Positions 2,687 through 10,758 of a DNA stretch of 13,592 nucleotides are shown one piece after another. Numbering within the stretch: position 1 is the stretch's first letter; the number at the start of each line of letters is the position of its first letter. A program made the translations under genes and the position numbers. The stretch comes from a virus (Duplodnaviria; Heunggongvirae; Uroviricota; Caudoviricetes): positions 1 to 13,592 of the IMG/VR virus record IMGVR_UViG_2778261231_000014. One strand, 5' to 3'. The notes beneath the pieces are model-generated. The model made no database searches. It was not told the origin of the DNA and worked only from the letters and a program-made list of their open reading frames with translations.

Positions 2687-3229
2687 TCATATAACCCCCA
2701 ACATTGACGTGACCATCGTCATCAGCGGCCCTACCTGCTCCGGCATGAGGCGGAACAGCGACGCTATACCCTCGCTTACCTCTTTCAGCTTCTGATGCTC
2801 TGGAGCGCCCAGAAGCACTGCCTGCTTAGCTTCGGCACACTCTTTCATCGCGGATGCGATCAGCGACATCGTGTCGTTCTGTGGTGCAAGGCGGTTGCGA
2901 AATTCCAGTGGAAGTACCGCCATGATTGCGGGCGTCAGCTGGCGCACGTTCTCGCGGTACTGCTCAGAGTCGAAACGGTTATCCAGAAAGCGAAAAAGTT
3001 TCTGGCGCGCCCTGCTGATGTCTTCCGGGAAGCTGATGGCGGTACCGCCCTGCTCCCGGTATTCGTTGATGATCAGTGCCGAAACGACGTCCTGATTGTC
3101 CAGCGCCGAAGACCATGCCCGGACCGCATCGCGGATCTTTTCGTGGTCTGGCGCCGCCTTAGGTTGAGCGCGGTTTATCATCGCTCCCGGGTGTATTCCG
3201 GTATTGTGTTGATACGCAAGTGAATGCAT
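2687..3229 (-). CDS. YdaT-like regulatory protein (CII-position analog of Rac-type prophages)
   Basis: Sits immediately downstream of the cro-like gene. Motifs EYREQGG and LTPAIMAVLPLEFRNRL resemble Rac YdaT as I recall it. Start could be ATG 3229 or internal ATG 3181. Confidence 0.6.
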   Translation of the reverse strand: MHSLAYQHNTGIHPGAMINRAQPKAAPDHEKIRDAVRAWSSALDNQDVVSALIINEYREQGGTAISFPEDISRARQKLFRFLDNRFDSEQYRENVRQLTPAIMAVLPLEFRNRLAPQNDTMSLIASAMKECAEAKQAVLLGAPEHQKLKEVSEGIASLFRLMPEQVGPLMTMVTSMLGVI

Positions 3230-3258
3230 TGCTTTCCCTTTCGTGGTTAGGGCCGCCG

Positions 3259-3480
3259 TTAGGCGGCAAAGATACCTGGATATAGAACTTCGCGAGGAAG
3301 CCCCGTCACTTCTTCGTACTTACGCATTTTTGTTACTGGAAGGCTGCCACCTCGCTTTTTAAGCATATTGATGGCCTGTGGCGTTACGCCGACCTTTTCA
3401 GCAAGCACCTTTTGAGAGCCGCCCACTGCATTAATGGCTTTCTCAAGCGGGGTGCTTGCGTTGGATTCTTTGTTGATCAT
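3259..3480 (-). CDS. Cro/YdaS-like small HTH regulator (73 aa)
   Basis: HTH-like segment QKVLAEKVGVTPQAINMLKK; GGAG RBS 7 nt upstream of ATG 3480; divergent from the repressor gene across an operator region. Confidence 0.7.
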   Translation of the reverse strand: MINKESNASTPLEKAINAVGGSQKVLAEKVGVTPQAINMLKKRGGSLPVTKMRKYEEVTGLPREVLYPGIFAA

Positions 3481-3597
3481 GTTTTGCTCCGCTCATGTGT
3501 AATCAACACCATGTTAATTCATGATGTGGATTAAATCAACATTATGGTGATGGAAAAAATCCACATGTTGTTTACCATGCATGGAGCGGAGGGTTTT
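3481..3597. promoter_or_regulatory. Immunity operator/promoter region (OR-like) between the divergent cro-like and cI-like genes
   Basis: Four copies of AATC(A/C)ACA or its complement at 3501-3508, 3525-3532 (TGTGGATT), 3534-3541, 3558-3565. 3525-3541 forms an imperfect 17-bp palindrome TGTGGATTAAATCAACA. A leftward TTGATT-17-TAACAT promoter candidate lies on the - strand. Confidence 0.6.
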
Positions 3598-4308
3598 ATG
3601 AGTAGCATTTCTGAAAGAATTAAATTTTTACTGGCAAGGGAAGGCTTGAAGCAGCGGGATTTGGCTGAGGCTTTGTCGACTAGCCCACAGACCGTCAACA
3701 ACTGGATAAAAAGAGACGCGTTAAGTCGTGAGGCGGCGCAACAAATATCTGAAAAATTCGGTTATTCTCTTGACTGGTTATTAAATGGAGAGGGTTCTCC
3801 AAAGAAGGATCTGGAGAGCAACATCCCGCCAGAGTCTGAGTGGGGAGTTGTTGATGCATGGGATAAAGACACCCCGCTTCCTGTTGATGAGGTTGAAGTG
3901 CCATTTCTTAAGGATATTGAATTTGCGTGTGGTGATGGTCGAGTTCAGTGCGAAGACCACAATGGATTTAAGCTGAGATTCTCCAAGGCAACGCTCAGAA
4001 GAGTGGGTGCAAATAGTGATGGTTCTGGAGTGCTTTGCTTTCCCGCTTCTGGTGACAGCATGGAGCCCGTTATTCCTGACGGCGCAACGGTAGCAGTCGA
4101 TACAGGCAACAAGCGGATTATTGACGGCGAACTCTATGCTATTAACCAGGGCGATTTAAAGCGCATAAAGCAGCTTTATCGAAAGCCTGGTGGGAAGCTA
4201 TTAATACGAAGCATCAATCGCGATTATGACGATGAAGAGGCTGATGAGGCAGATGTCGAGATAATCGGTTTTGTGTTCTGGTACTCGGTATTGCGATATC
4301 GCCGATAA
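3598..4308 (+). CDS. CI-like phage repressor (N-terminal XRE-type HTH plus C-terminal S24/LexA-like peptidase)
   Basis: HTH RIKFLLAREGLKQRDLAEALSTSPQTVNNWIK; S24 signature GDSMEP and a downstream Lys (LKRIK). Start ATG 3598 with GGAGGG RBS; in-frame ATGs from 3544 exist but overlap the operators. Confidence 0.85.
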   Translation: MSSISERIKFLLAREGLKQRDLAEALSTSPQTVNNWIKRDALSREAAQQISEKFGYSLDWLLNGEGSPKKDLESNIPPESEWGVVDAWDKDTPLPVDEVEVPFLKDIEFACGDGRVQCEDHNGFKLRFSKATLRRVGANSDGSGVLCFPASGDSMEPVIPDGATVAVDTGNKRIIDGELYAINQGDLKRIKQLYRKPGGKLLIRSINRDYDDEEADEADVEIIGFVFWYSVLRYRR

Positions 4309-4314
4309 TTTTAG

Positions 4315-4425
4315 TGGCCTGAAGAGACGTTTGGGTGATAAGAGAATATCTGATAGTAGGCGTGGTTACTTTGCTCTCGGTTGTTGCGATCGTGCTTATG
4401 GTGGCCTGATGAGACGTTTGGGTGA
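4315..4425. repeat. Two copies of a 25-bp direct repeat GTGGCCTGA(A/T)GAGACGTTTGGGTGAT, 86 bp apart, between the cI-like and KilA-N genes
   Basis: Copy 1 at 4315-4339, copy 2 at 4401-4425, one mismatch. Read directly from the sequence. Confidence 0.7.
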
Positions 4426-4457
4426 TTATTTTATTTTTCACAGCAATAGGATGATTT

Positions 4458-5219
4458 ATGACACAGTTTCAACTTGCATTAATCGCCAGAGAAGTTGATG
4501 GAGAAGTCATCCATCTTCGCACCAAAGACGGTTACATCAATGCCACCGCAATGTGCAAGTCTGCTGGGAAGCTACTTGCTGACTATACACGACTAAAAAC
4601 AACGCAAGATTTTTTTGATGAATTATCCCGCGATATGGGGATTCCCATATCGGAATTAATTCAATCATTTAAAGGCGGAAGAGCAGAGAATCAAGGGACT
4701 TGGGTTCATCCAGACATCGCAATTAACTTAGCTCAGTGGCTATCTCCAAAATTTGCAGTGCAAGTATCGAGATGGGTGCGTGAGTGGATGTCAGGCGAAA
4801 GAGCGCCTGCCGAACTCCCTATCCACCTTAAGCGGTATATGACAAACCGAGGCAGGGTTCCTCATACGCACTTTTCTATGCTTAATGAACTGACGTTTAA
4901 CCTGGTTGCGCCACTTGAGCAGGCAGGATATACGCTGCCAGAAAAAATGGTCCCTGATATTTCAGAAGGTAGGGTTTTCTCGCAATGGCTTCGTGAAAAC
5001 CGGGGTGTTGAGCCGAAGACGTTCCCAACATATAACCATGAGTACCCAGATGGCCGGACATTCCCGGTACGTCTATACCCAAACGAATATCTTGCAGATT
5101 TCAAACAACACTTCAACGAAGTGTGGCTGCCTCAGTACGCTCCTAAATATTTTGCAGAACGAGACCAAAGGGCATTGACGTTGATTGAGAAAATCATGTT
5201 GCCTGACCTTGATTCCTAA
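4458..5219 (+). CDS. KilA-N domain protein (253 aa) with an unassigned C-terminal domain
   Basis: N-terminal approximately 100 aa (INATAMCKSAGKLLADYTRLKTTQDFF...VHPDIAINLAQWLSPKFAVQVSRWV) fit the KilA-N/APSES-like fold. AGGA RBS; lower GC than the flanks. Confidence 0.65.
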   Translation: MTQFQLALIAREVDGEVIHLRTKDGYINATAMCKSAGKLLADYTRLKTTQDFFDELSRDMGIPISELIQSFKGGRAENQGTWVHPDIAINLAQWLSPKFAVQVSRWVREWMSGERAPAELPIHLKRYMTNRGRVPHTHFSMLNELTFNLVAPLEQAGYTLPEKMVPDISEGRVFSQWLRENRGVEPKTFPTYNHEYPDGRTFPVRLYPNEYLADFKQHFNEVWLPQYAPKYFAERDQRALTLIEKIMLPDLDS

Positions 5220-5227
5220 ATGTTATA

Positions 5228-5250
5228 CCCGGCCACCAAGCCGGGGTTTT
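5228..5250 (+). terminator. Putative intrinsic terminator after the KilA-N gene
   Basis: Stem CCCGGC / GCCGGG, loop CACCAA, followed by GTTTT. Sits between the convergent KilA-N and 65-aa genes. Confidence 0.4.
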
Positions 5251-5446: not shown

Positions 5447-5501
5447 TACCCACTCCTTTTTGATGTTTTTTTCAGCATATCACTTATGCCACCAAAAAAT
5501 A

Positions 5502-5576
5502 AATCAACATAAAAATCAACAAGAAACGATTAAATCAACAAAATAAATCCACAAGGTGTTGACCTATAAATCCACA
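5502..5576. promoter_or_regulatory. Second operator-like cluster (OL-like): five direct copies of AATC(A/C)ACA
   Basis: AATCAACA at 5502, 5514, 5533; AATCCACA at 5546, 5569. Same motif family as the cI/cro intergenic region; the last copy lies between the -35 and -10 of the rightward promoter. Confidence 0.55.
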
Positions 5577-5587
5577 TGATGTTTAAT
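5559..5587 (+). promoter_or_regulatory. Putative early-left (pL-like) sigma70 promoter: TTGACC-17-TTTAAT
   Basis: TTGACC at 5559-5564, TTTAAT at 5582-5587, 17-bp spacer containing AAATCCACATGATG. Points toward the recombination-gene operon. Confidence 0.45.
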
Positions 5588-5633
5588 TATCCCATCGAAA
5601 CGAAACATCGACAGCTGAGCGAAGTTAGCCAGC

Positions 5634-5664
5634 GGCGGACAGCAAGTCGCCTGCTTTTTAACAA
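5634..5664 (+). promoter_or_regulatory. nut-like site in the leader: bulged hairpin followed by a boxA-like TGCTTTTTAACAA (alternatively a leader intrinsic terminator)
   Basis: Hairpin GGCG(G)AC-AGCAA-GTCGCC at 5634-5651, then TGCTTTTTAACAA at 5652-5664, which is one mismatch from the rrn boxA core TGCTCTTTAACAA as I recall it. Confidence 0.35.
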
Positions 5665-6003
5665 CATGCAGATTTACAGCGTCAATGACCTGTTAAGACC
5701 CCTACACGTAAACGTGCTGTATCACCGGGTGCGATCCGGTCGGTGAGAGAGTATCCCCGCGCGAGAGCGAGAACGGCGTGAGAACGGGCAACACTGGCAG
5801 GGAGTTGGCGCTGACCAATACAGGGAATGTTATGGGATGTGGTGAAGGGTTCATGGACGGGAATATGTCGCACGTAAAGCGGCGAGGCCCGAGGAGCTAT
5901 TGCCGAAGATAAGTAGGCCGAATCGGGTCGAAATGGGTCTCCCACCTACCACATCGCCAAAGCATTTCTCCCGCATCAGCGGGTAACGACAGAGGGTAAG
6001 GGG

Positions 6004-6300
6004 ATGATCGACGACATCAAGCGCATCGACTCAATGATAAATGCGCTTCGCAATATGAAACAGGACATCAAGCGTCAGCAGAAACTAAGTGAAATAAACA
6101 GTTTAGACCTGTCGCCGAAGCAAGCTCAAAAGCGCAATGCCGATGCTGACTGGATTGCGATGGAACAGATTAAGCGTCGGCATGAGCTGCACGCTCTGTC
6201 TGTTGAGCTTGGGTTCGCTGAGCGCCGGGAAAGTTATGCTCCATTTGAATTAACTGACGGGTGGCACCGATTCGACCACAAGCCGCGCGAACCTCAATAG
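6004..6300 (+). CDS. Hypothetical early protein (98 aa), first gene of the rightward early operon
   Basis: RBS AGGGTAAGGGG before ATG 6004; followed immediately by an intrinsic terminator. No family recognised. Confidence 0.55.
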   Translation: MIDDIKRIDSMINALRNMKQDIKRQQKLSEINSLDLSPKQAQKRNADADWIAMEQIKRRHELHALSVELGFAERRESYAPFELTDGWHRFDHKPREPQ

Positions 6301-6940: not shown

Positions 6941-7228
6941 ATGGAAATCGTAAAAATCGAAATGAACCTGAAAGCAGTGAATAAAGAAGTGGCTGCATTC
7001 AACTGCGAGAAGAAAGTATCAGGCGTTATTCACTCAACTACAAACGGTGAAACAACAGTCATTCTCGACGGTGGCTATGTGCTTGGCAAGTTTGATTGCC
7101 CGCACTGCGCCATTGAGGAGATCAGCTTGCTGGTACTCAAAATCAGCGATAGCGATTACGCCGGCTGGGGAACCTACCGTACATACAAGCAAGATTTTAT
7201 GAATGAGGCGATCGTAGCCGTCAGTTAA
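6941..7228 (+). CDS. Hypothetical protein (95 aa) immediately upstream of the recE-like gene (racC position)
   Basis: GGAG RBS 5 nt upstream of ATG 6941; a hairpin GCCCAC-CGAA-GTGGGC without a U-tract follows at 7235-7250. Confidence 0.55.
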   Translation: MEIVKIEMNLKAVNKEVAAFNCEKKVSGVIHSTTNGETTVILDGGYVLGKFDCPHCAIEEISLLVLKISDSDYAGWGTYRTYKQDFMNEAIVAVS

Positions 7229-7368: not shown

Positions 7369-10300
7369 ATGGAATTCTTTAATGTGGTTAAAGCCACTCA
7401 GAAATCCGGAAAGCAAGATGCAGTGGTCTGGTTCACTGCTAAAACCGAGGCTCGCGCCAATCTGATGCTGGATGTTGCGCTGGAAGATGCAGGTATCGAA
7501 ACAGGTCGGGGTAAGGACTACGCCAAACCGATTCGCACTGATTTCCCAGTTGTCGACGGCCTGCCGAAAGAAGGTGAAGTTGATTTTACCTGGTGTGATC
7601 GCTACGAGCTTCAGGACGATGGGCGCACCTGGCTGCCAAAAGCCGCTGGTGTGTCTACTGGTTCCGTTGACGCCCCCTACACACCTACTCCGACCGTAAT
7701 CGTTGAAGATGCGACTGCGTCCGAAATTGTCCCGGTTGAAAACCGTACTCCAGCGGTCCGCTTTGCCGTCCATCTGATGAACGATAAATACCAAACCCAC
7801 GTCACTAAAGAGCAGCAGTTGGCTGCCAGCGAAATGTCACTGGATGAAGGCAATACATATCTCCATAGCCTGCTTGTGGCAAGGAACGATGTGCCCGCGA
7901 CCGCCAAACTCAGCCTGAATGCTGAGTGGAAAATGATTCGGGCGGTTAAGGACATTTTCACACCCGACGAAGAGCACGAACCAAGATTGATCGCTGCATT
8001 CATGTCTGACTGGGTGAACACCGATGCCGGTGACCGCAATCAACTGGTAGAAGACTGGCGCAGTGGTAAGTTGCAGTTGCTCAAAACTGAAACCAGCAAC
8101 GCTGCTGACGTTACAACGGGTCAAGATCTCACTGTTGAGGACGGTATCCAGACCGACGAGAACGGCCGGGCAGAAGGTGGCGTCGTTGATGGTGAAGTCG
8201 ATACCGAAGAGCAATCCCAGCAGACACAGCAACCGAACCTGATCGTTGTTGCCACCCTGCCATTCCGCCAGCGCGTACTGGCTCAGTTCATCGGTGATGG
8301 TGAATATCTCTATCACATCGACGCAGGGCAGAAAAATGAGATTGTCCGCCTTGAGATGGACACCGATGACGCGTACGTCCAGAACCTGCTGCTGGCAGCT
8401 GAGAATGTGGAAGCATTCAAAAAAGCCATTGAGCACGATATTCATAAAGTCGTGAATGCCGTTAAGAAAGTCTTCCCTGTCGATGGAAAAATCCCTGAAC
8501 TCGCAACCTTAATCCAGTTTTTGAAATTGTGGTTCGCTACAGATCACATCGACCGCGGTATCCTCGTTCGCGAATGGGCCGCCGGTAATCGCATCAGTAG
8601 TGTGCAGCGTACTGATTCCGGCACTAATGCCGACGGCGGTTACGTCACTGACCGTGGACCTGACGCACACCACACACTGGACACTCTCGATTTAGAGATT
8701 GCGTGTGCCCTTCTGCCTATGGACTTCAACCACTTCGAGATCCCGGGCAGCATTCTTCGTCGCGCTAAAGAAATCGTGACCAAAAAAGAAGAACCATGGA
8801 AATCATGGAGCAACATCCTGCGCAATCAGCCAGGCGTTCTGGGTGTTAACCGCACGGCTATTTTTAACCTGGTACGTATCGCACCGGAAAATATTCATTT
8901 AACTCCTGTCGCTCACCTGGAATTTGTTAACCAGACCATGACAGCCGCGTTCAATTCCGCGGTCGAGTTATTGCCGTTGCATGAGGCTGAACCCGCAGCA
9001 CAGGAAATTCCCCAACCTGAAGGTAAGGAGTCTCCGCGCAAATCCTTCTGCACTCACGAAGAGAACCTGCAACGCGTGCGTGAAGAAGGAGCACGCCGCC
9101 GCGCAGAGGAAGCGGCAGCACAACCGCAGAAAGTCGAACAAGAACTGGTTAAAAATGTCGGCAACGGAATATTCGACGTTACGGCTTTGCTGCAGAACTC
9201 AGCAACTCATGGCACGAAAAAGGCTACGGAGACCACCAGCAATGTGCAGGTTCAAGAAACTGTCAGTGATGAAAAACAAGCTGGTGATGAAGTACAGCCA
9301 GGCGAAAGCAGTCTGGAGTCTGGTGAAGAGTCAGATACCAGCCAGAAGGACGATGTAAACCAGAATACGGATTCTGTCGCCAAAAATAGCGATTCTGTAA
9401 GCCAAACCGAACCAGTTGCAGCACAAACCGAGCCAGAAGCGCAATCTGACGAACCGGCTGTTGTTTATCCCGCTTATTTCGAGCCAGGCCGCTATGAAGG
9501 GCTGCCAAACGAGGTTTACCACGCCGCCAACGGCATCAGCTCAACCCAGGTGAAAGATGCGCGCGTTTCGCTGATGTACTTCAATGCGCGCCACGTAGAG
9601 AAAACCATCGTCAAAGAGCGCTCAGCGGTGCTGGACATGGGCAACTTGGTGCATGCGCTGGCGTTGCAGCCTGAACTACTGGACGCAGAATTCAGCGTTG
9701 AACCGGTGATCCCTGAAGGCGCATTCACAACGGCCGCGACCCTGCGCGCCTTTATCGATGAGCACAATGCCAGCCTGCCGGCGCTGCTGTCTGCCGACGA
9801 CATCAAGGTGTTACTGGAAGAGTACAACGCCACCCTGCCGCCGCAGGTTCCGCTTGGCGCTAACCTGGAAGAAACGGCACAGAACTATATGGCGCTGCCA
9901 GCTGACTTCCAGCGTATTGATGGTGACCAGAAGCAGACGGCGACGGCAATGAAGGCATGCATTAAAGAGTACAACGCCACCCTGCCGCCGCCGGTTAAAA
10001 CCAGCGGCAGCCGTGACGCGCTGCTGGAGCAGTTGGCAATCATCAACCCTGACCTTGTGGCTCAGGAAGCACAGAAACCGGCACCACTGAAAGTGTCCGG
10101 TACCAAAGCAGACATGATCCAGGCCGTGAAGGCAGTCAAACCAGATGCCGTATTTGCCGACGAACTGCTGGATGCCTGGCGCGATAACCCGGAAGGAAAA
10201 GTGCTGGTCACCCGCCAGCAGCTGAGCACCGCGCTGAATATTCAAAAAGCGCTTCTGGCACACCCGACCGCCGGCATGCTGCTGACCCACCCTAGCCGAG

Positions 10301-10758
10301 CCGTTGAGGTGAGCTACTTTGGTTTTGACGAGGAGACGGGCTTGGAAGTTCGTGTGCGCCCTGACCTTGAGATCGACCTGGATGGCGTGCGTATAGGTGC
10401 AGACCTGAAAACCATCAGCATGTGGAATGTTAAGCAGGAAAGCCTGCGCGCCAGGCTACACCGGGAAATTATTGAACGTGATTATCACCTGAGCGCGGCT
10501 ATGTACTGCGAAACCGCAGCGCTGGATCAGTTCTTCTGGATTTTCGTCAACAAAGACGAGAACTACCACTGGATCGCCATCATCGAGGCATCCGCTGAAC
10601 TACTGGAGCTGGGTATGCTCGAGTACCGCAAAGCGATGCGCAATATCGCAACCGGATTCGACACAGGTGAATGGCCAGCGCCAATCACTGCTGACTACAC
10701 CGACGAACTGAACGACTTCGACCTGCGCCGCCTTGAAGCGCTGCGTACTCAGGCATAA
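7369..10758 (+). CDS. recE: RecE-like exonuclease VIII (1129 aa): long N-terminal region, acidic linker, C-terminal PD-(D/E)XK nuclease domain
   Basis: Single long ORF with GAGGA RBS. C-terminal RVRPDLEIDLDGVRIGADLKT fits a PD...(D/E)xK signature; N-terminal DFPVVDGLPKEGEVDFTW resembles what I recall of RecE. Directly followed by an annealing-protein gene. Confidence 0.7.
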   Translation: MEFFNVVKATQKSGKQDAVVWFTAKTEARANLMLDVALEDAGIETGRGKDYAKPIRTDFPVVDGLPKEGEVDFTWCDRYELQDDGRTWLPKAAGVSTGSVDAPYTPTPTVIVEDATASEIVPVENRTPAVRFAVHLMNDKYQTHVTKEQQLAASEMSLDEGNTYLHSLLVARNDVPATAKLSLNAEWKMIRAVKDIFTPDEEHEPRLIAAFMSDWVNTDAGDRNQLVEDWRSGKLQLLKTETSNAADVTTGQDLTVEDGIQTDENGRAEGGVVDGEVDTEEQSQQTQQPNLIVVATLPFRQRVLAQFIGDGEYLYHIDAGQKNEIVRLEMDTDDAYVQNLLLAAENVEAFKKAIEHDIHKVVNAVKKVFPVDGKIPELATLIQFLKLWFATDHIDRGILVREWAAGNRISSVQRTDSGTNADGGYVTDRGPDAHHTLDTLDLEIACALLPMDFNHFEIPGSILRRAKEIVTKKEEPWKSWSNILRNQPGVLGVNRTAIFNLVRIAPENIHLTPVAHLEFVNQTMTAAFNSAVELLPLHEAEPAAQEIPQPEGKESPRKSFCTHEENLQRVREEGARRRAEEAAAQPQKVEQELVKNVGNGIFDVTALLQNSATHGTKKATETTSNVQVQETVSDEKQAGDEVQPGESSLESGEESDTSQKDDVNQNTDSVAKNSDSVSQTEPVAAQTEPEAQSDEPAVVYPAYFEPGRYEGLPNEVYHAANGISSTQVKDARVSLMYFNARHVEKTIVKERSAVLDMGNLVHALALQPELLDAEFSVEPVIPEGAFTTAATLRAFIDEHNASLPALLSADDIKVLLEEYNATLPPQVPLGANLEETAQNYMALPADFQRIDGDQKQTATAMKACIKEYNATLPPPVKTSGSRDALLEQLAIINPDLVAQEAQKPAPLKVSGTKADMIQAVKAVKPDAVFADELLDAWRDNPEGKVLVTRQQLSTALNIQKALLAHPTAGMLLTHPSRAVEVSYFGFDEETGLEVRVRPDLEIDLDGVRIGADLKTISMWNVKQESLRARLHREIIERDYHLSAAMYCETAALDQFFWIFVNKDENYHWIAIIEASAELLELGMLEYRKAMRNIATGFDTGEWPAPITADYTDELNDFDLRRLEALRTQA

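Follow-up and report, generated by a model that had tools for sequence, protein, structure and literature searches.

The intergenic region between divergent cro and cI genes of a prophage as a probable phi80-type right operator

Positions 3481–3597 of the window (the whole 13,592-nt stretch of viral DNA analysed here) very probably form the right operator (O-R) in a prophage of the phi80 immunity type, and comparison with annotated phage records points to a lambda-type switch with three operators. The region is already known as the phi80 right operator, which has been sequenced and annotated since 1988. The comparison supports a reading in which the functional units would be three 19-bp dyads, each opening at one copy of AATCMACA. 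A palindrome of 17 bp at 3525–3541, singled out in an earlier sequence-only reading, is not an operator; it spans the spacer between two operators and half of the second, OR2. A leaderless or alternative-start cI transcript, also suggested by that reading, is not supported on sequence grounds. Beyond correct annotation, the importance of these assignments is small.

The phi80 right operator in the window

The region is the gap between a divergent gene pair, cro (3259–3480, minus strand) and cI (3598–4308, plus strand). Its extent of 117 bp and its description as an immunity switch region were both given in the sequence-only reading and both hold, the region corresponding to the phi80 O-R region. 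Operator and promoter coordinates were obtained by projecting the phi80 feature table (JX871397) onto the window by alignment, and the names OR1, OR2 and OR3 are given by analogy with lambda. The features are as follows.

3259–3480, minus strand: cro-like gene (73 aa, HTH_3/YdaS-like), homologue of phi80 gene 30
3487–3490, minus strand: cro Shine–Dalgarno GGAG, 6 nt ahead of the cro ATG, read from the sequence
3501–3519, no strand: OR1, CI operator, AATCAACA-CCA-TGTTAATT; JX871397 protein_bind feature "CI operator", mapped by alignment
3511–3516, minus strand: pR −10 TAACAT, a JX871397 regulatory feature, with a predicted start near 3504
3525–3532, minus strand: orphan inverted half-site AATCCACA, from the half-site search; in the 14 bp that separate OR1 from OR2 and also form the pR spacer
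3525–3541, no strand: 17-bp palindrome TGTGGATT-A-AATCAACA, made up of the orphan half-site and the OR2 left half; not an annotated operator
3534–3539, minus strand: pR −35 TTGATT, from JX871397 and the hexamer scan
3534–3552, no strand: OR2, CI operator, AATCAACA-TTA-TGGTGATG; JX871397
3550–3556, plus strand: pRM −35, a weak hexamer, either the annotated ATGGAA (17-bp spacer) or TGGAAA (16-bp spacer)
3558–3576, no strand: OR3, CI operator, AATCCACA-TGT-TGTTTACC; JX871397
3573–3578, plus strand: pRM −10 TACCAT; JX871397, with a predicted start near 3585
3588–3593, plus strand: cI Shine–Dalgarno GGAGGG, 4 nt ahead of ATG 3598 and within the predicted leader of about 13 nt
3598–4308, plus strand: cI repressor gene (236 aa), with an HTH N-terminal domain and an S24 (LexA-like) self-cleaving C-terminal domain

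The intergenic region shares 115 of its 117 bases with coliphage phi80, and over 3200–4350 the identity to phi80 is 91.4%. Both mismatches are at 3524–3525 (AT here, GC in phi80), in the OR1–OR2 spacer, where they touch none of the annotated operators or promoter hexamers. The three 19-bp CI operators, the pR and pRM hexamers, the Shine–Dalgarno sequence and the cI start are identical to those of phi80. The phi80 records are X13065, from Ogawa et al. (1988), and JX871397/NC_021190, from Rotman et al. (2012). At homologous positions, X13065 and JX871397 mark an "O-R region", the promoters pR and pRM, three CI operators and a cI gene of 236 aa. For CI binding at the operators and for the positions of the promoters the source is the phi80 annotation in GenBank, while the sequence identity to phi80, the site positions, the dyad structure and the conservation of sites and start codon were established here. 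A full-text literature search, whose coverage left the original phi80 papers outside, found no paper that footprints the phi80 operators or maps the start of pRM.

The flanking proteins agree with this assignment. The cro product (Pfam HTH_3) matches phi80 gp30 at 72 of 73 residues; the homologue of phi80 gene 30 is labelled "Cro-like transcriptional regulator" in JX871397, and the complement of the cro Shine–Dalgarno, CTCC, is kept in relatives. CI matches phi80 CI at 229 of 236 residues, with residues 1–83 (the DNA-binding domain) 100% identical. It carries the Pfam domains Phage_CI_repr, HTH_3 and Peptidase_S24 (E = 1.4e-19, residues 108–226), and its linker holds Cys111-Gly112. Because the CI N-terminal domain and the operators are identical to those of phi80, the prophage of the window is predicted to be homoimmune with it. 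The window differs from phi80 in its replication genes, in the gene that follows cI (a KilA-N protein here, 40A in phi80) and at seven residues of CI, located in the linker and the C-terminal domain. As a whole it is a mosaic, nearest overall to phage HK225 and E. coli prophages. The phi80 cI–OR–cro segment also occurs in widely used laboratory strains, DH5alpha, DH10B and TOP10 among them, via phi80dlacZ.

A second operator cluster with the same half-sites, O-L, lies 2.0 kb from O-R. Positions 5470–5745 are identical to phi80 O-L at 271 of 276 bases, and the five substitutions lie outside the annotated operators, the half-site at 5533–5540 and the pL hexamers.

5502–5587, no strand: O-L region, from JX871397 features, half-site matches and weight-matrix scores
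5502–5521: annotated third O-L site, two direct half-sites
5533–5540: orphan half-site in O-L
5546–5564: OL2 operator; JX871397
5569–5587: OL1 operator; JX871397
5559–5564 and 5582–5587, rightward: pL, −35 TTGACC and −10 TTTAAT; JX871397

Operators, promoters and the proposed switch

The half-site AATCMACA occurs nine times in the window, where 1.03 copies would be expected, and 0 of 200 shuffles reach nine, and every copy falls in one of two clusters (3501–3565 and 5502–5576). The full operator consensus is AATCMACA-NNN-TGTTGATT. In O-R its left half is perfect at all three sites and its right half is degenerate, with 4–7 of 8 dyad pairs across the three, and the consensus halves of O-R and O-L all share one direction along the genome. 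The sequence-only reading correctly placed further half-site copies at 3501–3508 (AATCAACA) and 3558–3565 (AATCCACA), but it went astray in parsing the sites: the three same-orientation AATCMACA copies are left halves of 19-bp operators whose weaker right halves were overlooked.

Scoring and conservation both single out these 19-bp units. A symmetrised 19-bp weight matrix (PWM) was applied in leave-one-out fashion, with each operator dropped in turn and 13574 19-mers ranked. The five well-formed operators score 21.6–25.3, and the best other 19-mer in the 13.6 kb scores 10.2; each of the five, once dropped, still comes fourth or fifth. OR1, with 7 of 8 pairs in its 19-bp dyad, scores 25.3 (rank 4/13574); OR2 (22.1) and OR3 (21.7) both rank fifth. 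OR2 has 7 of 8 pairs when framed as 17 bp at 3535–3551, which bears on the earlier count of one imperfect 17-bp palindrome in the gap: the palindrome described is present, but the count is incomplete, as one of equal quality forms the core of OR2. Across 12 diverged lineages, conservation is 0.81–1.00 in half-sites, 0.56–0.83 in operator centres and 0.51–0.64 in non-operator segments. The OR1 half-sites reach 0.93–0.98, OR2 has 1.00 in its left half and 0.84 in its right, and OR3 has 0.81, 0.56 and 0.91 in its left half, centre and right half. Among 25 distinct sequences the OR1–OR2 spacing is always 33 bp and the OR2–OR3 spacing 24–25 bp.

A relaxed hexamer scan agrees with the annotation of both promoters. 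Its top minus-strand pair is TTGATT/17/TAACAT (8/12) and its top plus-strand pair TGGAAA/16/TACCAT; in relatives the pRM −10 reads TACCAT, TACTAT or TATCAT. A strict consensus scan for promoters and terminators over 3300–3800 returned 0 sites, both promoters scoring just 7–8/12, and Rfam (gathering threshold) and tRNA scans gave no match in the region. A published survey found no OxyR site near pRM in phi80 (PMC2903704).

The operators are laid over these promoters in a familiar way. OR1 overlies the −10 of pR together with its predicted start. OR2 overlies the pR −35 and adjoins the pRM −35, its centre (3543) falling at about −42 relative to the predicted start of pRM, and OR3 sits between the pRM −35 and −10, overlapping the −10 by 4 bp, with its centre at about −18. 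In the proposed switch, CI dimers on OR1 (pR −10/start) and OR2 (pR −35) would turn off leftward transcription from pR, and cro, cII and the replication genes would be silenced with it. CI at OR2 would activate the weak pRM from the same position that lambda CI uses at its own pRM and, again by analogy, occupation of OR3 at high CI would repress pRM. Cro probably acts on the same operators as CI, perhaps preferring them in another order, since the recognition helices of the two proteins are related; their HTH regions align and have the motif PQ.(V/I)N in common. Cooperation between O-L and O-R may be expected by analogy. Lambda-style pairwise cooperativity is only assumed, because the OR1 and OR2 centres are 33 bp apart and not the roughly 24 bp of lambda. 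The pRM transcript would run from near 3585 with a leader of about 13 nt carrying GGAGGG, and ATG 3598 would open the 236-aa repressor.

The inverted half-site and the cI start codon

The moderate conservation of GTGGATTA (3526–3533), the core of the orphan half-site, is the one item that the standard phi80 model does not explain. Its value across the 12 lineages is 0.83, above the 0.57 of 35 non-operator columns (Mann–Whitney p = 0.007) and below the 0.91 of true half-sites (p = 0.0003), statistics that are soft because the relatives share ancestry.

It is unlikely that the orphan half-site (3525–3532) acts as an extra functional element within the known switch. Such an element might take one of three forms. 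Binding of Cro (gp30), or of a fourth subunit of CI, might compete with OR2 and block pR; flanking contacts might lengthen OR2; or it might belong to a second rightward promoter, as minus-strand TGATTTAAT (3538–3530) resembles an extended −10. Conservation above the non-operator columns argues for such a role, as do an OR1–OR2 spacer of exactly 14 bp in 25 of 25 sequences and the reading GTTGATTA, the other permitted half-site variant, in L049. The promoter form can point to the TTTAAT hexamer in TGATTTAAT, which is the annotated pL −10 hexamer, but that hexamer lacks the near-essential A at −11. Conservation below that of true half-sites argues the other way, and so does the softness of the statistics. 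The innermost A is invariant in every true half-site, whereas the equivalent position 3525 is hypervariable; L004 has no orphan half-site (AGAAGATA), L007 has GCGGATAA, and the copy in L059 is off by 1 nt. O-L has no equivalent conserved inverted copy: the GATT before 5533 becomes AATT, CATA, AATA or GATC in relatives.

Slightly less probable again is the proposal that the orphan half-site (core GTGGATTA) is an uncharacterised functional fourth recognition element, for example a Cro-preferred or subunit-docking site. If this were true, the orphan half-site and the OR2 left half would offer a protein an alternative binding register that shuts CI out of OR2, and the fourth element would account for an OR1–OR2 distance of 33 bp rather than a lambda-like 24 bp. 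A canonical 19-bp operator at 3514–3532, with the orphan half-site for its right half, was rejected: its PWM score is 3.9 (rank 21), and real operators score no lower than 21.6.

An account along the lines of the sequence-only reading, in which the palindrome at 3525–3541 is the main operator, the other AATCMACA copies are auxiliary and cI has a leaderless or alternative start (at an ATG from 3544 to 3577, or at 3598), is very improbable. The palindrome itself is real: TGTGGATTAAATCAACA is 14/17 palindromic, as had been claimed, seven of its eight arm pairs being complementary. A 7/8 palindrome of 17 bp is marginally unusual taken alone, as one turns up in about 5% of shuffles of the 117 bp and seven in the whole window. 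This palindrome is absent from the annotated phi80 operators, and its half-sites point away from the dyad, opposite to the arrangement in all five well-formed operators. Judging from HTH dimer geometry, a symmetric dimer that reads AATCAACA-N3-TGTTGATT should be unable to read the palindrome likewise. The outer pair is broken in phi80 (C for T) and is completed in the window by one substitution within the AT at 3524–3525 (phi80 GC), at the hypervariable 3525, and the Pantoea relative L004 has the same operators without the inverted copy. Two other symmetric sequences were set aside. The 8-bp inverted repeat CTCCGCTC/GAGCGGAG (3487–3494 and 3584–3591) coincides with the two Shine–Dalgarno contexts and is not regarded as structural, because GGAG alone is conserved in relatives; the perfect palindrome CCATGCATGG (3575–3584) is not conserved.

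For the start of cI, the same reading could draw on in-frame ATGs that are indeed present at 3544, 3550, 3565 and 3577, on the GenBank record of HK225, which starts the repressor at the ATG equivalent to 3544, and on documented leaderless genes of the cI type, lambda cI and CP-933P paaR2 (PMC8630535). The strong ribosome-binding site that it assigned to ATG 3598 is likewise present, as GGAGGG at 3588–3593. A leaderless message starts at the A of its AUG and has neither leader nor Shine–Dalgarno; as predicted from the sequence, the cI message does not have this form. The −10 TACCAT at 3573–3578 places the predicted start around 3585, leaving about 13 nt before ATG 3598, which runs against a leaderless or alternative start "as with lambda pRM". 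The pRM −10 ends 19 nt short of that ATG, the GGAGGG lying between the two, and no ATG of the region lies 6–8 nt past any acceptable −10. A GGAGG-type Shine–Dalgarno 9–12 nt past the −10 and an ATG 18–26 nt past it are kept in all 25 distinct relatives. The equivalent of ATG 3598 is used as the cI start in X13065, in JX871397 and by PGAP. Upstream in-frame ATGs are missing or stopped in at least six lineages: L004, L007, L045, L046, L047 and L049 have none, L045, L046 and L047 have an in-frame stop 15–18 nt ahead of the start. In L039 and L044, 1-nt indels between OR2 and OR3 change the frame. Two specific leaderless candidates were also rejected. CATTAT (3540–3545) with TTCATG, which would serve ATG 3550, scores 7/12 and lies within OR2, the A of that ATG is just 5 nt past CATTAT where about 7 nt is expected, and ATG 3550 is not conserved; ATG 3581 is 3 nt past the −10 and out of frame.

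Least probable of all are two CI forms, 236 aa from ATG 3598 and 254 aa from ATG 3544 on a long establishment (pRE-type) transcript: ORF 3544–4308 is open, a transcript arriving from beyond cro would include the upstream ATGs and the HK225 repressor is annotated with an extended start, but no upstream ATG has a properly spaced Shine–Dalgarno, the N-terminal extension is not conserved and is broken in several relatives, and the upstream ATGs are by-products of CATG/ATG-rich operator sequence. The repressor start belongs at 3598 (236 aa); ATG 3544, the start of the longest ORF and the choice made in the HK225 record, should not be used.

Comparison with known switches

By sequence, the nearest solved structure to CI residues 3–66 is the phage 434 repressor (PDB 1per, 2or1, 1r69; E = 1.5e-4). 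The similarity is confined to the N-terminal domain of CI, and both N-terminal domains are five-helix HTH_3 folds that end in DWLLNG. The recognition helices differ, PQTVNNW in CI here and QQSIEQL in 434. So do the operators: those of 434 are 14-bp ACAA...TTGT sites, and those of the window are 19-bp AATCAACA sites.

The PaaR2/YdaS/YdaT switch of the cryptic prophage CP-933P (E. coli O157:H7) has a homologous gene set, the Cro of the window being YdaS-like and its cII YdaT-like (Pfam; PMC8630535). It resembles the window in its short divergent intergenic region, overlapping operators and pR/pRM-type promoters. Its repressor lacks the kind of S24 peptidase fusion seen in the CI described here, and its mRNA (paaR2) was found experimentally to be leaderless (PMC8630535). 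The lambda cI mRNA is also leaderless (PMC8630535), and in this phi80-type switches are predicted to differ from lambda, with a short Shine–Dalgarno leader on the pRM message for cI.

In its general plan the switch resembles that of lambda. In each, cI and cro diverge, the operators are three dyads, pRM is weak, the repressor is a self-cleaving S24 protein and a further operator cluster lies about 2 kb from the first; O1 and O2 lie over pR in both, with O2 at about −42 and O3 at about −18 from the pRM start, here a predicted one. The cleavage site sets the two repressors apart: Cys-Gly is the predicted site in the CI of the window, where lambda has Ala-Gly, the lambda site and the cleavage chemistry being reported in Eguchi et al. 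(1988). The operators differ as well, at 19 bp against the 17 bp of lambda and of unrelated sequence, and the consensus halves of O-R and O-L all point one way here, unlike those of lambda. Finally, OR1 and OR2 are 33 bp apart in the window and about 24 bp apart in lambda, and the longer spacer carries the orphan inverted half-site.

The phi80 immunity region and its mosaic surroundings

The 117-bp gap between the cro-like and cI-like genes (3481-3597) is the right operator (O-R) region of phage phi80, carried by a mosaic phi80-immunity prophage. An immunity switch had rightly been placed here from the sequence alone; the element has been known since 1988 and is annotated in GenBank. Window positions 3200-4350 match phi80 (X13065, JX871397) over their full length at 91.4% identity; the figure is 94% for phage HK225 and 97% for prophages in several E. 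coli strains. DH5alpha, DH10B, TOP10 and other strains also contain the phi80 copy of this segment. The gap differs from phi80 by only two mismatches, at 3524-3525 (AT here, GC in phi80). CI shares 229 of 236 residues with phi80 CI, including all of residues 1-83 (the HTH domain), and Cro is identical to phi80 gp30 at 72 of 73 positions. A second cluster of half-sites is the phi80 left operator (O-L) region (271/276 identical), and none of the substitutions touches an annotated operator, the extra half-site at 5533-5540 or a pL hexamer.

Elsewhere the window is a lambdoid early region of mosaic make-up, nearest overall to HK225 and E. coli prophages. The genes run in the order DnaC-like loader, O-like initiator, YdaT-type cII, cro and cI, followed by a KilA-N gene (4458-5219, replacing phi80 gene 40A), O-L/pL and N, and then by a RecE-like exonuclease, RecT and an integrase. 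Right behind the cI stop codon is a 31-bp direct repeat, 90% identical (4309-4339 and 4396-4426). Similarity to phi80 stops soon past the second copy and restarts near 5250; similarity to phage PhiR5_2 starts at 4401. The repeat appears to be a conserved linker at a junction between recombined mosaic segments. A 98-aa ORF at 6004-6300 fits the N antiterminator gene of phi80 (record M11919) in size and position, and the places that JX871397 gives for the phi80 nutL boxA and core correspond to about 5652-5716 here. An Rfam match to the Hfq-binding sRNA isrB (RF01386; 7230-7327, minus strand; 38.2 bits where the gathering score is 35, with E = 5.8e-4) lies between an ORF at 6941-7228 and the RecE-like gene at 7369-10758.

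Phi80 features were transferred by alignment, window coordinates being those of locus L001 plus 1698. JX871397 marks three 19-bp sites as 'CI operator' and also gives pR, pRM and the cI start. From X13065 come an 'O-R region' of 81 bp and a cI of 236 aa. The names OR1-OR3 are ours, after lambda. Assignments of CI binding and promoters draw on the GenBank feature tables together with sequence and comparative evidence.

Features in and around the cro-cI gap (operators and promoter hexamers transferred from JX871397, cI start from the phi80 annotation)
3259-3480, minus strand: cro-like ORF
3501-3519: OR1, AATCAACA-CCA-TGTTAATT
3516-3511: pR -10, TAACAT
3534-3552: OR2, AATCAACA-TTA-TGGTGATG
3539-3534: pR -35, TTGATT
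3544: ATG at which the cI-like long ORF opens
3550-3555: pRM -35, ATGGAA
3558-3576: OR3, AATCCACA-TGT-TGTTTACC
3573-3578: pRM -10, TACCAT
3588-3593: cI Shine-Dalgarno GGAGGG, preceding ATG 3598
3598: cI start, ATG

Operators, half-sites and the 17-bp palindrome

The sequence-only reading had described the switch as one palindrome with accompanying half-sites. Its strings are real and correctly placed (TGTGGATTAAATCAACA at 3525-3541, AATCAACA at 3501, AATCCACA at 3558), but the operator unit was wrong, the true units being three 19-bp operators. Because the phi80 annotation maps there, the three same-orientation half-sites are the consensus left halves of these operators; the right halves are weaker, with 7/8, 6/8 and 5/8 consensus matches in OR1, OR2 and OR3. 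The 13.6-kb window has nine copies of the half-site octamer AATCMACA where 1.03 are expected, and 0/200 shuffles reach nine. The copies are confined to two clusters: three plus-strand copies and one minus-strand copy at 3501-3565, and five plus-strand copies at 5502-5576. The five well-formed operators, three from O-R and two from O-L, were used to build a symmetrised weight matrix, on which they score 21.6-25.3; the best other 19-mer in the window reaches 10.2. When each operator is left out in turn, it still ranks 4th-5th of 13,574 positions.

Comparative evidence comes from 77 related loci retrieved with the CI protein, which yielded 25 distinct cro-cI gaps of this operator type for alignment. 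Some of these relatives, found in Pantoea, Citrobacter, Rosenbergiella and metagenomic viral contigs, share only 63-82% identity in CI. Across 12 diverged lineages, whose relatedness makes the statistics indicative only, the fraction conserved is 0.81-1.00 for operator half-sites, 0.83, 0.72 and 0.56 for operator centres, 0.58 for the cro leader, 0.64 for the left part of the OR1-OR2 spacer and 0.51 for the stretch from the pRM -10 to the Shine-Dalgarno. Judged from these alignments, the pattern is the classic operator signature. OR1 and OR2 are spaced 33 bp apart in every one of the 25 sequences; for OR2 and OR3 the distance is 24-25 bp.

The 17-bp palindrome has seven of eight arm pairs complementary and is by itself only marginally unusual: one turns up in roughly 5% of shuffled versions of the 117 bp, and the window has seven that are equally good. 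The gap itself contains other dyads at 3535-3551 (7/8 pairs) and 3501-3519 (19 bp, 7/8 pairs). The palindrome joins the left OR2 half (3534-3541) to a fourth perfect half-site on the opposite strand (3525-3532), which falls in the 14-bp OR1-OR2 spacer that is also the pR spacer. These half-sites face away from the dyad, the opposite of their arrangement in real operators, and therefore a dimer reading AATCAACA-N3-TGTTGATT cannot bind the palindrome in the same mode, as we infer from fixed HTH-dimer geometry. If the inverted copy is scored as a right half, within the canonical 19-mer frame 3514-3532, it reaches 3.9 and is not operator-like.

The outermost base of the inverted half-site, T3525, is C in phi80, and 3524 and 3525 are the most variable positions in the region (AT, GC, AC, TC, TT, GT, GA and AA among sequences that are otherwise near-identical). 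At the core GTGGATTA (3526-3533) conservation is moderate, above non-operator columns (0.83 vs 0.57, p = 0.007) and below true half-sites (0.83 vs 0.91, p = 0.0003). One Pantoea locus (L004) lacks the core yet keeps all three operators at the same spacing, and no conserved equivalent of the inverted half-site was found in O-L. The core could be conserved because it adds a contact for Cro or CI, extends OR2 or belongs to a promoter. As to a promoter, minus-strand TGATTTAAT (3538-3530) resembles an extended -10 and contains TTTAAT, the pL -10 hexamer in JX871397 (window 5582-5587). A start from it would lie near 3523, toward cro; promoter function is doubtful because there is no A at -11.

O-L (5502-5587) has five perfect AATCMACA half-sites, all on the plus strand, and the consensus halves of O-L and O-R share one direction along the genome. 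A right half is recognisable only at 5546-5564 and 5569-5587. The orphan direct half-sites at 5502, 5514 and 5533 score 2.3, -2.2 and -3.1 with the weight matrix, and their start-to-start spacings are 12, 19 and 13 bp; the third O-L operator of JX871397 (5502-5521) consists of two direct half-sites. This distal site is made of direct half-sites in the window, whereas in related loci L039 (about 3861-3900) and L059 (about 3295-3335) it is a long-spaced inverted pair, AATACACA-N14/15-TGTGTATT.

Promoters, the cI start and the proposed switch

In a relaxed hexamer scan, the best plus-strand pair (TGGAAA/16/TACCAT or ATGGAA/17/TACCAT) is the annotated pRM and the best minus-strand pair (TTGATT/17/TAACAT) the annotated pR. 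Both fall under threshold in a strict scan, as expected for a pRM dependent on activation. Since the pRM -10 ends at 3578, the transcript is expected to start near 3585, giving a predicted cI message 5'-AGCGGAGGGUUUUAUG with a leader of about 13 nt, nearly all Shine-Dalgarno and spacer.

The sequence-only reading had noted in-frame ATGs from 3544 and GGAGGG before ATG 3598, both present, and had proposed a leaderless or alternative-start repressor. Comparison with relatives does not support that proposal. All 25 distinct relatives keep a GGAGG-type Shine-Dalgarno 9-12 nt past the -10 and an ATG 18-26 nt past it, and none has an ATG at leaderless distance (6-8 nt). The upstream in-frame ATGs (3544, 3550, 3565 and 3577) are not conserved: they are missing from loci L004, L007, L045, L046, L047 and L049, L045-L047 have an in-frame stop 15-18 nt ahead of the cI start, and a 1-nt insertion in L039 and L044 shifts the frame. 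The upstream ATGs arise incidentally from the CATG/ATG-rich operators. X13065, JX871397 and PGAP all agree on the 3598 equivalent, and the phi80 records and PGAP give a 236-aa repressor from this Shine-Dalgarno-served ATG. Only the HK225 record takes the longest ORF (L082, JQ086371, 938-1711; 257 aa from the 3544 equivalent), probably a start-codon mis-annotation. A perfect 8-bp inverted repeat, CTCCGCTC/GAGCGGAG (3487-3494 and 3584-3591), is formed by the cro and cI Shine-Dalgarno contexts, and a perfect 10-bp palindrome, CCATGCATGG (3575-3584), overlies the -10 of pRM and its predicted start. In relatives, nothing of either is conserved beyond GGAG.

By the phi80 annotation, CI binds OR1, OR2 and OR3, with OR1 overlapping the annotated pR -10, OR2 overlapping its -35 and OR3 lying between the pRM hexamers. 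Geometry and the lambda paradigm suggest that CI on OR1 and OR2 would repress pR, that CI on OR2 (centre 3543, about -42 from the predicted pRM start) would activate the weak pRM, and that at high CI, OR3 (centre 3567, about -18) would mediate its repression. Cro, whose HTH aligns with that of CI (GxxQxxLAExxxxxPQx(V/I)N), probably uses the same operators, and the O-L cluster 2.0 kb off could cooperate with O-R. Among solved structures, the N-terminal domain of the 434 repressor comes closest to CI in sequence. CI also has an S24 self-cleavage domain, with Cys111-Gly112 in the linker; Eguchi, Ogawa and Ogawa reportedly found in 1988 that RecA stimulates cleavage of phi80 CI at a Cys-Gly bond.

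Lambda cI and the homologous CP-933P paaR2 are leaderless by experiment (PMC8630535). The phi80-type cI is predicted from its sequence to carry a short Shine-Dalgarno leader, and in this respect the switch would therefore be unlike both.
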